Of a stretch of 21,366 nt of DNA, positions 15,001 to 21,000 are shown piece by piece (position 1 is the stretch's first letter; the number at the start of each line of letters is the position of its first letter). Location of the stretch: the UHGV virus genome UHGV-2192570; one strand, given 5' to 3'. Source of the stretch: a virus. The position numbers were made by a program.

Positions 15001-18000
15001 TGCTTACCACACATTGGGTAGACGGATGTATCAGGCAGAAGTGTAATTAACCGGAAAAAATCCCTTTCAGTCTGACGGGCAAAAAAAAACCGTAGTGCGA
15101 TAACACTACGGCATGCCACCAAAGAAACATAACAAGGAATCAACAATGAGTAACACCTGTAAGCCTTCGGGGTGATTGTAACACATGAGCAATCTTTTAC
15201 TGGAAACTGTTTTTCACTGGATCACGTATCGTTATGGGGATTCCCATATCGGAGAGCATCCACCAGCTTCATAGGGGATAACCGGAAAAATTCCGGTAAA
15301 TATTTGCCTGAGTAAGTCATCAAGCGCCTGCTAAATGTGTATAGAAATGTGTATAGGATTGATTTTAGAACATGTGGAAATGGCTTTATTACTGGTGGCA
15401 TGGCTTGTTGTTCTGTTCCCTTCGCCGCTCCAGTCTCCTGATAAATCAAGAAGTTACGATTTATCAGTTAGTTACGTTGCCCCGCTAAAGCAGGTACAAC
15501 TTAAACTACCCATTGTTCTACGCCCGCACCTGTCGCGTGATTGGTCTGTGGTACAAGGGAGCATATCATCACGCTGGCGGTGGTTCCACGTTCTTACCGC
15601 GACAGCACAACAACGAACAAAAAGCCGCATACCTGGCACAACTCCCAAACAGATTGATCACACGCATTTAAGCCCGATGTGTGGCCCTATAAGCCACGTA
15701 AACAGGTGAATAGTGGTAATGCCCCGGTAGCTACAGATCCGGCTCTGCCAGCGCTTCGCTCACGCTCCTAACGGTACACGAGCACCCTGATAAGGTGTGA
15801 TCCCTCTGACAATCTGATGCAGTCGCCTAACGGCTTCACTTGTCTCCTTACCACTAACGGGGCTTTATGGATGCTATTGTCTGTGACCTAGTTAGTTGTA
15901 AAATCATAAAAAATTTCATGTGATGTTAAGCACCTGTATGGATCAAAGGACGGCACTATGGTTAAAAATTACGAGGAAGAATCATTTAAAGTTATCAGTC
16001 GATTCATTGCATTACACTTAACCCCAGAAAGATTAATGAAGATCGGGGCTTTTGTTGTTTGTTATGGTCAGTTTGAAACAACTTTGGAGCGTGCCTTATG
16101 GACTCTGAGAGAGATTGATGTAAAAGGAGTTAGGCCCTTTACCGAAAAATTGCCATCTGATAAATGGTTCGAGTATTTGGGAAATGGTAATGATAAACTT
16201 AGCAATGAATGTAATACAGTCTTAAATCTTGCTTCTCTCGCTGCTATTGATTTGGCTGATTATAGGAATAGTTTGGTTCATGGATATTTATTACCGCTGG
16301 GTGATAAGCCTTCATTCATGAGAAATCCAAGATGGCATGGTGAACTTAGGAATAAAAGAACAGGCGATGCCTATATCGAAGAGCCACTCCTAGATCTTGC
16401 TATTATTTCTGGATGGACATTATTTAGGGTTGTTAGTCTAACAGAAAAAATTTTTGAGGATGAATCGGCAGAACCCTCAATAGTTATGTTAGAAAACGAA
16501 GTAAGAGAGGCACGAAGCTGTACAAATGAGTTACGCCATCTCAGAAGTTTAATGAATGAAGAGAAATATTAGTCAAAATCTTGAATTTCAATTATGAGAT
16601 ATAGGAGGTTTTATGGATGGTGTTTGTAAGTTATGTCTTGAAGCAAAAGAACTTCAGGAATCACACAGTATCCCTAGAAGTTTCTTTAACAAAGCAAAAG
16701 GAAACGGCGGTCAAGTTATCTCTATGCAAAAAGGAAGGGAACCAAGAAGAGAAAATTTAGATCCTAAAGAACCAATGCTATGTTTTGAATGCGAACAATT
16801 TCTTAGTGGTCAATACGAGTCTTATGGGATCAGATTGCTAAGAAACCCTCACAACATTAGAAAGAACTCTGATCACATTATTATTAGCAACTTCGATTAC
16901 AAGCGCTTTTATCTATTTCTATTATCCATACTATGGAGAGCCTCTAATGCTATGGACCTGCATTATTCTTCGGTGGTAGGGAATCCTGATTTTGGAGAGA
17001 TGATGAGGCACTGCATTAAAAATAACATTGTTAGGTTTAATAATAAGAGTCAGGTTAAAATTGATAATTTTATCAAGATTAGAGTGCTACGGATTGTTGA
17101 TAGCACTGGCAATATTCCTGATCATGTCATCAAATCGGTCCTCACGAACTTTGCTTTTGGTGAGATTGAAAGTATCAATGGGATTGGATGGTATTTTATA
17201 GCTGAAGGTTTTATCTTTCACTATGTATTTTATCCTGGTGAAAATTACTATGATGCCCGCACTACAAGATTGAACTCACAGCTTACATCTGGAAGTCATC
17301 AGAAAATACAAAAAGTAGAGGTATCTAAAGATAGAATGTTGTCAGAAATGTTTAATTATATGATCGAATGTTCGAAAGGCTATCATCAACAAAGACAATA
17401 ATGATTTTTGTTCTTTTGCCTCTCCATGAAAGGAATTGTTTTCCCCTTTATATAACCTTTACGCCACAGGCCCCAACCAATAAAAAAGGCTAGCCCATAA
17501 AGGCTAGCCCGTTGAATTTTTATTACTTCCCAATAATCTGCCGGAGTTTCTTTTTCTCCAACATAATTTTTAACGCTCGCTCAAAGCCGTACTGTTTTTC
17601 ATAGCGGCATAGAGACACCTGATCGATCCCCAACTTACGCGCCAGGGCTGAACGGTTGATCACGTCGGCATTGGTTGAGGTGTACACCTCTCCCAAGGCT
17701 GGAATGTTAAGGCTAATCTTCACTACTCACCTCAAATGGTAAAAAGCCCCAGCAATGCCAGGGCTTAAAGTCTGTTACTTGCTGCCTTACTTCAACTTAA
17801 CGTTGAGCAGGTAGGACGGACGCAGTACCAGAGGAATATGACTTGATTCCTGATGGATGGTTACCATGTTGTAACGGTCAACCATCACTTTCTGGTAGTA
17901 CGGGCTGATCACGCCTTTAGCGGCAATATCCTGATTACGGGAAGCCGGGCCGCGCACCAGTTTGAACGGGTTACGATCAGCACTGGAGAACTTAGGAACG

Positions 18001-21000
18001 AACAGGCCGGAACCCTCTTCAATCTCGTAGCGGTCATCGTCCGCCAGAATGAAAGTAATGTTGCCAATGCTGAAGCTGTCATAGCCCGCAGTGTTAACCG
18101 GGATCAGCGCACCACGTGCCGCCTCTGCCACCTTGTTAGTGATCAGGCTGGTTACTTCAGGGTGACCCGCTAAAGCGTCATACAGATCCGGGGATGCGAA
18201 ACAGAAGAATCGCTCCAGATAGGCACGGGATGCGCCGTACTCTTTCACCAGTTGGCGGCGAATCTTCGAAAGCTGGGCATACACATTAGCCCCGGCTGAG
18301 GCGTCAAGCTCAAAATCTAGCGGGGCGGTATCAAACACCACGTTGAAATCGACGTCGCCGTCATTGGTCTTTGCCGCTTTCGCTTTCTGTTGGAACAGGG
18401 CGCGGGCTAAAGTCGCTTCCACAGTCTCCAGGTGGTGATCACGCATACGCACGGATTTAGCGGCAATGACGGACGCAACCGCCTGAGCCTGATCCGGGTT
18501 AGCCGGGCTTACCAAGGATTGCCAATCTTCGGTTTTCACATCGGATTCTGTTGCGTAGTGTGGGATCTCCTGATCACGGAGGATGGTTTTATCCATCTTG
18601 ATGCTGTTTACTTCGGTGCCGTAGCGGGAGACCTGCTCAAGCTCTGCAACAGCGCTTTCCACAATATCCACAACCTGAGCGCGTGGGGTAGTGGAGTTAA
18701 CACCAGTGAAGATACCCAGATCAGAGATCAGGTGATTACCAGCGGGAACGGACTTGATAGCCGCTACCGTGTCGAGACGTTCAAAACTTTTGAAATCCAC
18801 AGCCATGTGATTACTCTCCTTGAGATTTACGGAAATCAGAATTAACAGCCAGGCGAATCTCACCCGATGCGGTCAGCGCTTCTAATGCGGCTTTCTTGGA
18901 TGCCTCATCTTTGGCTTTCAGATTGAAATCCGTGATCACTACGTGGCGATCCACAATGACCAGCGTTTTGGGCTTGCCGTCGGCGTCCATGTTGGACAGG
19001 TTAATGATCGGCTTGCCAGCGTCAGCGGCGGATGAGTCATACAGGGCAAAAGTTTTGCTGTCCAGGATGTCGCCACAATCGACGTGATCGGGGAGACCAT
19101 CCGGGGCGGTTACTTCGGTGCGGTCAAAAAGTGAGCTAGCATAGCTCACGATGATGTCGCCCTGGGTCACAGGGTAACGAGGAGTAGCATTCATTGAATT
19201 TTCCTTGAGGAGTGGAGAAGCGCACAGGGGCGCAGTGATACCCGGCGTTGCACCGGAGAATCCGGGAGTTGGGGAGACTCCAGATCGGATATTAGAGATA
19301 CAGGAGAGAGGCAGCGAATAGGATCAGAGGTCCATCATGGACCCCATCACCAGCCCCGATCCCACACCTCTGTGGAGGGAAAGGGTAAACCCTTTTTGTG
19401 TGGATACTTGCCGCCCCTGGCGGCGTCACGCCAATAGCGCCAACCTTTTGGCAAATACCCACAAAAAAAAGAACCCGGGAAGGTTACCGGGTGGACTTAA
19501 TAAGAGGAGATTTATCGCTTGAGTTTTCCTGTGGCGACTCATCGACAAGACACCAGAGGAAAACGGCGTGAACTGAAACACGCCGGAAACCGTAAACGGT
19601 TAATCATCCACACGGTTACCACGCCGTTGGATTGTGCCCTTTCGGGGAGGCTTTTGAGATAAGGAGATCTCGCGTGATATCTTGAGAGGAACATCACACT
19701 GTGAACCCTGGCAAGTGGAGTTGTTCAAGGCTCACAGGGTGAGGAACCAGAGCGGAGGAGAAGCCGCCCGGCTCACTCGTACAGATCTTGATTGCTCGGC
19801 TAAGCACACGTTGCGACTCTGTACACAGCGTGACGCGATGAGTTGCAAAACGGCGGGTTTCCAGATCCCGAGTAGACATGCTCACTACATCACGCTATGT
19901 CTATATTTTACAATAATTTATGCAAAATTGCAACAAAATGATCAGGTATATGTTGACTTCTACGTCGTGATGTGTATCAGATGAATTTGTGGGGGGTGAT
20001 TACGGTGGGTTTGTGGGTGGTCTGACTCAGGGGGGGCTATGTGTCTTTTGGGACACACTAGACAATAATAGATATATAAGACCTCGCTCCGCTCGCCCGT
20101 CCGGGCTACGGTCTTATTAATCTTATAATTTAATCGTTCAATAATTAATCGCTCAGGCTCTTAATTATTTCTCTCTTAAATTCTAGCCTCTTAAAACCTT
20201 TCGCTACGCTCACCCGTCCGGGTCCAGGTTTTAGGCCGGGGCCTGTTTCCCACATGTGGAGTCGAGCCTGTTGGCTCATCTCCCGGTGTAAAGAAATCAG
20301 ACGCCACGACAAACCGGGGAATCTTCAGAGGTGTAAAGAAATCAGACAGCAGGTGACATCTGGTGTAAAGAATCCCGACACCGTGGTGTAAAGAAATCAG
20401 ACACAATAAGACTATAGATAAACCTACCCACACCAGATAAAACTAGAACCCTCAGGACCAGGGCAAGACCTTAAAGAGATTGTGAGTATTAATTGATTGT
20501 TAATTAAGCAAGACTCTTTAGGTAAGGAACATCCGTTCCTGATCTTGGGACAGGCTACGCCCAACGGGTTAGCCTCCTTTGGGCAATGCAGAACCAGAAC
20601 CGCAACACGGTTTCTGTTTCTGCCTTTGGGAAACCGTGACACCTGGCAGCGGGGTGGGGTGCCCGGCGCGGAGTGATACCCACGGACGCCACAGGGCAAT
20701 ACCTAACGCGCTGTATGGCGTTATCTCCTCTCAGGTGACCCTACCACCACAGGGTGGCCCTCAGAACCGCTTACAGCTCGTTATACGCATGATTTGATAA
20801 ATCAACCCAGCCGCAAATAATCCATTGTCAATCTATTGAAATCATGATAAAATAATCAACGTGATGCGGGGTTGTAATTGAGTACAATTTCCCCAATTTA
20901 ATGATAAATGTTCTGCCCGGAGATTGCAAGCCCTATGAGTAAAATCGATTACAGCGACGTTGACACCCTTATCTGGCGTGTCGATCAGCGTCTGACTTCC

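Follow-up and report, generated by a model that had tools for sequence, protein, structure and literature searches.

The question raised by this locus is why a lambda D/E-like pair of head genes should stand alone, on the minus strand at positions 17523-19194 of the virus genome UHGV-2192570. A first-pass annotation of the stretch analysed here (21,366 nucleotides, nt; hereafter the window) had described the two genes as lacking the rest of a head module and explained them either as a decayed prophage remnant or as a minimal capsid-remodelling module of a satellite. The comparisons reported here indicate that the pair is probably the capsid-shell module of a previously undescribed family of Enterobacterales phage satellites, a conserved integrative element of which the window carries one copy (island B, from position 15433).

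The head-gene pair and its mobile element

The following features were assigned to the capsid operon of the window:

18811-19194, minus strand: head decoration protein of 127 amino acids (aa) with a gpD fold, from a sub-threshold PF02924 match and AlphaFold with Foldseek
17787-18806, minus strand: major capsid protein of the lambda-E type, 339 aa (PF03864, phrog_29)
17741-17766, minus strand: terminator-like hairpin directly 3' of the capsid gene, sequence AAGCCCTGGCATTGCTGGGGCTTTTT
17523-17723, minus strand: helix-turn-helix (HTH)-like open reading frame (ORF) of 66 aa, conserved (61-66 aa) 3' of the capsid gene in all family members
17487-17510, minus strand: strong intrinsic terminator ending the capsid operon, with a 10-bp GC-rich stem followed by a T run

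The capsid ORF matched the Pfam family PF03864 (Phage_cap_E) over residues 15-335 of 339, above the gathering score (E 3.4e-18), and also matched the major head protein family phrog_29; NCBIfam and PADLOC gave no match for capsid proteins. Its homologues formed 42 clusters with 55-96% identity, every one of them in Enterobacterales, and the best match among 50,697 phage genomes had only 23% identity. The gene starts at an ATG; a longer version starting at the GTG at 18863 is unlikely, as it would overlap the upstream decoration gene.

The decoration protein, whose homologues formed 135 clusters, matched PF02924 (the lambda gpD family) over its full length with an E value of 1.1e-4 and 22.7 bits, below the gathering score of 29.1, and PF02924 was the only family matched by 17 of 25 decoration homologues. 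No match was found for it in the same 50,697 phage genomes, nor in a PDB sequence search with the decoration profile. Alignment of this profile by hhalign was not significant against a single lambda gpD sequence, and gave nothing significant or a weak C-terminal match against the decoration proteins of the phages phiTE and FBKp34. Structure prediction with AlphaFold reached a predicted local distance difference test score (pLDDT) of only 34 from 25 close homologues; with the alignment deepened by four remote homologues, retrieved by a profile search of 1.84 billion proteins, the model reached a pLDDT of 78.9 and a predicted template modelling (TM) score of 0.76. All 12 top Foldseek matches of this model in the PDB were gpD-type decoration proteins (best E 7.5e-4, TM scores 0.43-0.55), with matches to Bas63, Sf14, phiTE DEC, lambda gpD, phage 21 SHP and YSD1.

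The lambda D/E-like character of the pair was thus upheld, by the full-length PF03864 match for the capsid gene and by the sub-threshold PF02924 match together with the model for the gpD fold. The translational coupling proposed in the first-pass annotation stood as tight linkage, with the decoration stop codon (18813-18811) lying 4 nt from the capsid ATG (18806) and an AAGGAG Shine-Dalgarno sequence inside the end of the decoration gene; an overlap between the two genes was not present. The 66-aa ORF had no family match in Pfam, PHROG and NCBIfam scans, and guesses at its role include an excisionase, a packaging-specificity protein or a regulatory protein.

Both head genes are under purifying selection. 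Measured against the window copy, in copies whose proteins are 60-85% identical to it, the ratio of non-synonymous to synonymous substitution rates (dN/dS) ranged over 0.10-0.22 in the capsid gene and 0.13-0.31 in the decoration gene, and no frameshift occurred in either gene in the 8 other copies compared.

The pair belongs to an integrative element of 13-14.5 kb that recurs across Enterobacterales. Genomic context was retrieved from Escherichia coli, Citrobacter, Enterobacter, Cronobacter, Pectobacterium, Pantoea and Pluralibacter, while Serratia, Klebsiella and Salmonella entered only through the source names given for homologous proteins. With the exception of the copies L011b and L012 (see below), the contexts shared one layout: a recombinase that varies between tyrosine and serine types, next to a cargo slot, the block formed by the decoration, capsid and ~62-aa genes, an ORF-free region of 1.7-2.07 kb, and then an opposing (early) operon of small genes, an O-like HTH initiator and a ~700-aa protein that is a tape-measure homologue. 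Integration sites varied, including tRNA-Gly, the leader of thiM with its thiamine pyrophosphate (TPP) riboswitch between rcnR and thiM, and others. Among 13 matching E. coli genomes, the five whose context was inspected all had the same small element, and a scan of species-representative genomes with the capsid profile gave a single locus.

Many independent contigs with these genes measured 13.0-14.5 kb. One Logan contig of 13,700 bp had a 30-bp terminal overlap and a break point inside an operon; in comparison with the integrated copy in E. coli SCU-316 (L003), the two island ends were joined in it by a single ~71-bp repeat, which is present on both sides of the integrated island (L003 11607-11677 and 25177-25247). 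As it holds a single copy of this repeat, the contig represents, judging from that junction, an excised circle of 13,670 bp.

For two members, annotated or called ORFs were compared with Pfam, PHROGs, NCBIfam and PADLOC, each protein being scanned with some or all of these libraries. The scans found recombinases, cargo, a DNA-binding protein and the O-like initiator, which is a weak match to replication initiators, and no portal, protease, terminase, lysis or tail protein besides the tape measure. Having no portal, terminase, protease or tail genes, the element is therefore not autonomous. As a satellite would, it integrates, excises and carries candidate replication functions of its own (iterons and the O-like initiator). 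In view of this conserved context, the pair is best described as the core module of a conserved mobile element, and not as a remnant.

Portal, protease, scaffold and terminase genes, reported missing in the first-pass annotation, were absent from the window and from the same element elsewhere, and the complete head module that might have lain just beyond the window was not found in intact copies of the element. The suggestion of a minimal capsid-remodelling module of a satellite was supported as to a satellite's capsid module; the module encodes a full shell protein and a decoration protein rather than a remodeller of a helper capsid, and it travels with the tape-measure homologue and, in most members, with a protein bearing a scaffold motif.

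Several members showed further peculiarities. In SCU-316, the right-hand ~71-bp attachment (att) repeat overlaps the annotated TPP riboswitch (L003 25171-25267), so that the element at the thiM site carries part of the riboswitch. A 188-aa tyrosine-recombinase-like gene was present in many members besides the full-length integrase or serine recombinase (L003 23270-23836, L005 10917-11483, L010 1628-2194, L012 2061-2627, L013 7161-7727), and adjoins the tape-measure gene where one is present. In Pantoea cypripedii (CP024768), a second, distant element (L011b; L011 13071-20117) lies in tandem with the first; its capsid and decoration proteins are 25% and 29% identical to those of the window, and the ~2-kb region without ORFs is present in it too, as is a PF26210 motif protein (see next section). 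L011b departs from the common layout in having all genes on one strand and no tape measure, and a divergence of this extent indicates that the element family has deep sub-lineages.

Links to large lytic myophages and a proposed mechanism

The putative helpers emerge from comparison with two large myophages, Pectobacterium phage phiTE (Certrevirus, Vequintavirinae, 142 kb) and Klebsiella phage FBKp34 (Stephanstirmvirinae, 141 kb). Their head genes follow the order portal, (protease), scaffold, decoration and E-type capsid, and the satellite pair mirrors the last two. The capsid profile could be aligned with its phiTE counterpart over the whole length (310 columns, 21% identity); in the FBKp34 head region, tblastn gave no match for the window-type capsid and decoration proteins. 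The tape measure of SCU-316 was 29.5% identical to that of phiTE over 599 aa (E 2e-72), rising to 45% over the N-terminal 96 residues. The window-type tape measure likewise matched the phiTE N-terminus, and its residues 322-656 matched the FBKp34 tape measure (E 3e-22).

Most members also encoded a PF26210 protein (112-168 aa) with a motif at residues ~63-95, KGRAIKSRGIALCHKDQGYSANGRPVSLLTKS. This motif of 31-33 aa was 82-84% identical to residues 7-39 of phiTE_211, an Ala/Glu/Lys-rich protein in scaffold position (portal, methylase, 211, decoration, capsid), and a related motif was recognised by eye at the N-terminus of the FBKp34 scaffold candidate. The motif came in two flavours, ...DQGYSANNR... 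(phiTE) and ...QGGAA(N/S)G... (FBKp34 and the Pectobacterium odoriferum satellite), the second located at L019 11152-11240 (FBKp34 gp180) and L010 4908-5273; the existence of two flavours hints that the satellites track different helper lineages.

Two further links lie in the ORF-free region upstream of the pair. The first-pass annotation had found only terminators and repeats there, and indeed no ORF was present in 19195-20907, and no Rfam family reached its gathering score. The region contains the following features:

19905-19933, minus strand: sigma-70-type promoter of the leader and capsid operon (TTGCAA, 17 nt, TAAAAT)
19195-19898, minus strand: untranslated leader of the capsid operon, ~700 nt, with conserved blocks in an 8-element alignment
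19838-19875, minus strand: antisense leader segment (~+23 to +60), opposing the Certrevirus capsid gene at its start codon and first ~10 codons
19564-19585, minus strand: leader terminator T1, a hairpin followed by TTTTCCTC
19473-19492, minus strand: leader terminator T2, a hairpin followed by TTCTTTTTT
20052-20149, unstranded: helper-like non-coding block, 86-89% identical to Certrevirus intergenic DNA over ~90 nt
20285-20403, unstranded: four iteron-like direct repeats, GGTGTAAAGAAATCAGAC, adjoining the AT-rich stretch 20120-20190
20794-20853, plus strand: two promoter-like sites for the early (replication) operon

The helper-like block matched 25 phage records (E 1e-18 to 1e-21), among them CR3, CR8, PBES02, P7_Pc, DU_PP_I/IV, KaOmega, vB_ExiM and vB_PdiM F5M2A; the label Certrevirus for these phages rests on the taxonomy retrieved for CR3 and phiTE. 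The same phage segment was also matched by the satellites L003, L005, L009 and L017. In CR3 its counterpart lies between divergent genes, beside an AT-rich and GATC-rich stretch, and in the window the block contains a hairpin element (repeat D2) that recurs at 20201-20233. The block is a candidate for a cis site recognised by the helper, an origin or a packaging signal.

The antisense segment provides the other link. In L005 the leader matched the start of the phiTE capsid gene at 31 of 34 nt (BLAST E 3e-6). The 17-mer TGCAAAACGGCGATTTC had seven exact occurrences in 2.9 million viral contigs: the capsid-gene starts of CR3 and phiTE, the satellites L022 and L024, and three unrelated ones. Duplexes were predicted at -53, -44 and -42 kcal/mol, the middle value being that of the window copy; shuffled sequences gave -21 ± 3.8 kcal/mol (-21 ± 3.7 in the comparison for the window copy). 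An antisense role is proposed on account of the position, the orientation, the conservation and the longer 31/34 match.

The control elements of the leader were themselves conserved. The exact promoter pattern occurred at the equivalent place in six of eight aligned copies, with near-matches in the other two. With distances counted relative to the decoration gene, T1 lay at -376 to -431 and T2 at -279 to -321, each in nine of the ten copies checked; the T1 stems covary, and T2 showed compensatory stem changes (CCCGG/CCGGG versus CCCGC/GCGGG). The promoter and the two conserved leader terminators suggest that the capsid operon may be kept off by termination and opened by antitermination during helper infection.

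The four iterons are a candidate replication origin. Three to four iterons of their own were found at the equivalent position in four of six other members scanned, with a spacing of 21-56 bp, often 33/55, and the variation among iterons in this position would fit an origin adapted to a variable initiator. In L017, from Citrobacter amalonaticus, the capsid protein is 96% identical to that of the window, while the iterons (8266-8374) and the initiator (220 versus 202 aa) differ, a contrast that indicates modular exchange of the replication module between elements. The possibility that the ORF-free region is one large structured RNA was set aside, since the region resolves into a promoter, a terminator-bearing leader, iterons and the helper-like block.

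These links would fit a scheme in which large lytic myophages with headful packaging, of the Certrevirus/Vequintavirinae and Stephanstirmvirinae type, act as helpers. The phiTE capsid has T=13 symmetry and a 1:1 ratio of capsid to decoration protein (PMC11972413); certreviruses have circularly permuted genomes and phiTE transduces (PMC7344957), and the circular permutation makes headful packaging likely. Upon helper infection, the satellite would replicate and transcription would read through both leader terminators. A shell would then be assembled from the satellite capsid and decoration proteins on the portal and scaffold machinery of the helper; it would probably be small, matched to a genome about one tenth the size of the helper's (by arithmetic, 13.7 kb is ~10% of 142 kb, roughly the content of a T=3 shell if T=13 holds 142 kb). 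The helper terminase would fill this shell by a headful mechanism, and helper tails, measured by the satellite's own tape measure, would be attached. The leader RNA might meanwhile block translation of the helper capsid protein, or sense the helper late mRNA.

Taken together as a single 'shell-swap' proposal, these steps would have an antisense leader silence or sense the helper capsid mRNA and the satellite's own, probably much smaller shell replace that of the helper, with a mimic of the scaffold motif recruiting the helper machinery. The satellite would be copied or packaged by way of a cis site resembling the helper's, and its tape measure would be fitted into the helper tail. This joint proposal, which has no counterpart among described satellite families, is distinctly more doubtful than the satellite assignment itself and is put forward tentatively.

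Several points weigh against the satellite reading or this mechanism. The entire case is computational, with respect to induction, packaging, particle size and transfer alike, and the circular assembly is evidence of a form that is circular or tandem, but not of packaging. The subfamily of the window is without the scaffold-motif gene, having a 42-aa ORF or a 226-bp gap in its place. The antisense segment of the window gave only chance-level matches in BLAST searches against phages, and an exact 17-mer shared by a 2-kb region and a 142-kb genome has an estimated probability of ~3% by chance. The satellite capsid protein is only ~20% identical to that of the putative helper, which leaves co-assembly with a foreign portal and scaffold unexplained, as is the need for a tape measure of its own (704 aa, compared with 811 aa in phiTE). 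The recorded hosts of certreviruses are Cronobacter, Pectobacterium, Enterobacter, Klebsiella and Pantoea; E. coli is not known as one.

Alternative explanations and comparison with known satellites

The alternative that survives best is a defence island, in which mimics of the capsid, decoration and tape-measure proteins, together with the antisense leader, would poison the assembly of invading Vequintavirinae-type phages, while the element itself is never packaged and spreads by another route. The OLD nuclease found as a defence gene in the cargo slot of related elements is in keeping with such a role, the antisense match and the scaffold-motif mimic could be pure interference, and the capsid protein differs greatly from that of any helper. 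However, the narrow size range of 13.0-14.5 kb, the replication module, the circle and the helper-like block suit a packaged satellite, and full-length conservation of the decoration protein makes sense only with closed shells. As known satellites pair interference with transfer, this explanation overlaps with the satellite reading; as a full account in its own right, it is unlikely.

Far less probable is the decayed prophage remnant offered as one option in the first-pass annotation, that is, a pair left from a lambda-like head module by deletion and kept by chance. Signs of decay do exist: no other head gene accompanies the pair, an element of the insertion sequence (IS) family IS3 interrupts the window copy, the copy in E. 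coli LR-29-1 carries IS421, the scaffold-motif gene is missing from the subfamily of the window, and the Pluralibacter copy (L012) is apparently degraded, with its tape-measure and HTH genes seemingly lost. Nevertheless, a compact gene set repeated across many genera, integration sites and recombinases, dN/dS values of 0.1-0.3, the excised 13,670-bp circle, the absence of a close capsid relative in the 50,697 phage genomes, and the same small element in all five E. coli contexts inspected contradict this origin. Least credible of all is a shell working without a helper, either as a self-sufficient minimal virus or as a compartment resembling encapsulins or gene transfer agents (GTAs): with its HK97-fold shell and cement protein and no recognisable portal or terminase, the element resembles the portal-less HK97 elements (bioRxiv 10.1101/2025.06.18.659913), but a tape measure is useful only with a tail, lysis genes are absent, four independent sequence links lead to tailed lytic phages, and no encapsulin cargo or targeting signal was noticed, although no search was aimed at them.

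If the element is indeed a satellite, its nearest counterparts include phage-inducible chromosomal islands of the capsid-forming type (cf-PICIs), integrative elements of ~12-17 kb with their own capsid protein and with capsid genes distinct from those of sequenced phages (PMC12772148, PMC13612085). The likeness lies in a capsid protein encoded by the satellite, with no remodelling of a helper protein. cf-PICIs, however, possess capsid, protease, portal, connectors, TerS and TerL/HNH as well as int-alpA-pri, and take only tails from temperate helpers, whereas island B has only the capsid and decoration genes, an E-type capsid protein (PF03864), a tape measure and apparently lytic helpers. Of the int-alpA-pri/rep core of PICIs, island B showed neither AlpA nor a primase; the window does hold an int-alpA RNA and a primase, both in the PICI-type island that precedes island B (island A).

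In its relation to the helper, the element recalls the PICI-like element (PLE) of Vibrio cholerae, which is reported to form small capsids and to down-regulate ICP1 capsid genes (PMC10945586, PMC7567579). PLE is a small satellite of a large virulent myophage, ICP1, and also serves in host defence; island B would be alike in these respects. PLE, though, uses the ICP1 coat protein reshaped by the TcaP scaffold, whereas island B encodes a shell, and its antisense repression is only proposed. The putative mimicry by the PF26210 protein of a helper scaffold motif has a parallel in CpmB of the Staphylococcus aureus pathogenicity islands (SaPIs), a small protein reported to share a short interaction motif with the helper scaffold (Dearborn et al. 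2017). Here the motif of the helper scaffold is N-terminal, not C-terminal, and the parallel extends to most members, unlike the subfamily of the window, from which the PF26210 gene is absent.

The head modules of lambda (D-E) and of phiTE and FBKp34 share the gene order, the PF03864 capsid protein and the gpD-type fold with the element, but the element pair comes without portal, protease, scaffold or terminase and with ~20% identity to the phiTE capsid protein. P4, of 11.6 kb, has a recombinase and a defence hotspot beside a late operon with the capsid decoration protein Psu, and its immunity is RNA-based, via premature termination in a leader. Size, layout and a leader under the control of terminators are what the element has in common with P4. 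P4 depends on the capsid protein and cos site of P2, unlike the element with its own capsid protein, and no Pfam or PHROG match to Sid, Delta, Psu or alpha-primase was found on element proteins.

Among open-access papers, the literature yielded only the described families (P4-like, PICI, cf-PICI, PLE, PICMI and a few others), with no satellite carrying its own capsid and tape-measure genes and none linked to Vequintavirinae or Stephanstirmvirinae. Known satellites either reshape the helper capsid (P4, SaPIs, PLE) or are equipped with a full module for head formation and packaging (cf-PICIs); if the satellite reading is true, a shell, a cement protein and a tape measure alone would represent an intermediate strategy. 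Enterobacterales would also gain a satellite of large lytic phages of the rV5/phiTE/phi92 type, which are widely proposed for therapy and biocontrol, and elements with defence cargo in clinical genera (E. coli, Enterobacter, Citrobacter, Cronobacter and Klebsiella) could block therapeutic phages and also use them to spread. Antisense control of the helper capsid gene and a leader laden with terminators would constitute directly testable regulation. Screens based on the hallmark genes of P4-like elements, PICIs, cf-PICIs and PLEs are expected to miss the element, as it does not carry those genes.

Tandem islands of the window

The window consists of two tandem islands at the E. coli tRNA-Gly gene adjoining actS, delimited as follows:

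1-15432: island A, PICI-type, matching islands at the same tRNA in many E. coli
15410-15432, plus strand: degenerate copy of the tRNA-Gly 3' end, at the junction of islands A and B
from 15433: island B, second in the tandem array, carrying the head genes
15958-17401, plus strand: cargo slot with two genes (204 aa and 262 aa), GC content 35-37%
20935-21332, plus strand: first gene of the early operon, truncated here, 147 aa in intact copies
21333-21366, plus strand: end of an IS3-family element that lies within the first early gene of island B

Positions 15410-21332 were 99.8% identical to E. coli LR-29-1, where the element begins right after tRNA-Gly, and the identity stops at 21332. The last 36 nt (21331-21366) had 100% matches inside annotated IS3-family transposase features and were found in 2,667 E. 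coli genomes. Since the IS3-family element interrupts the first early gene at 21333, the window copy of island B may be partly inactivated or no longer mobile.

The two cargo genes had no match in Pfam, NCBIfam or PADLOC, and the sole match of the 262-aa protein was phrog_7075, to which no function is assigned. The equivalent slot of related elements held an OLD-family nuclease (PADLOC Old, E 1.3e-45), which is the cargo of the thiM-site elements, or HNH genes. The two genes of the window (15958-17401) are candidates for an uncharacterised anti-phage system.

The head genes had also been described as inverted relative to the antiterminator gene Q (13300-13695). The orientation is correct and carries no meaning, since island A ends at the tRNA-Gly repeat at 15410-15432 and Q lies within that separate PICI-type island. 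Q was rejected as a regulator of the capsid operon for the same reason, being in an island with its own attachment-site boundary. Besides Q, island A possessed an integrase (1-1254), an int-alpA RNA (1299-1366), genes for Rha/Ant, Icd, SSB, ProQ and PerC, and a primase-like ORF (6628-8769). Matches to the isrK and C4 antisense RNAs were found at 5653-5841, where they are overlapped by a 677-aa ORF (4033-6066) with a reversed AT skew; given this overlap and the skew, part of that ORF may be noncoding.

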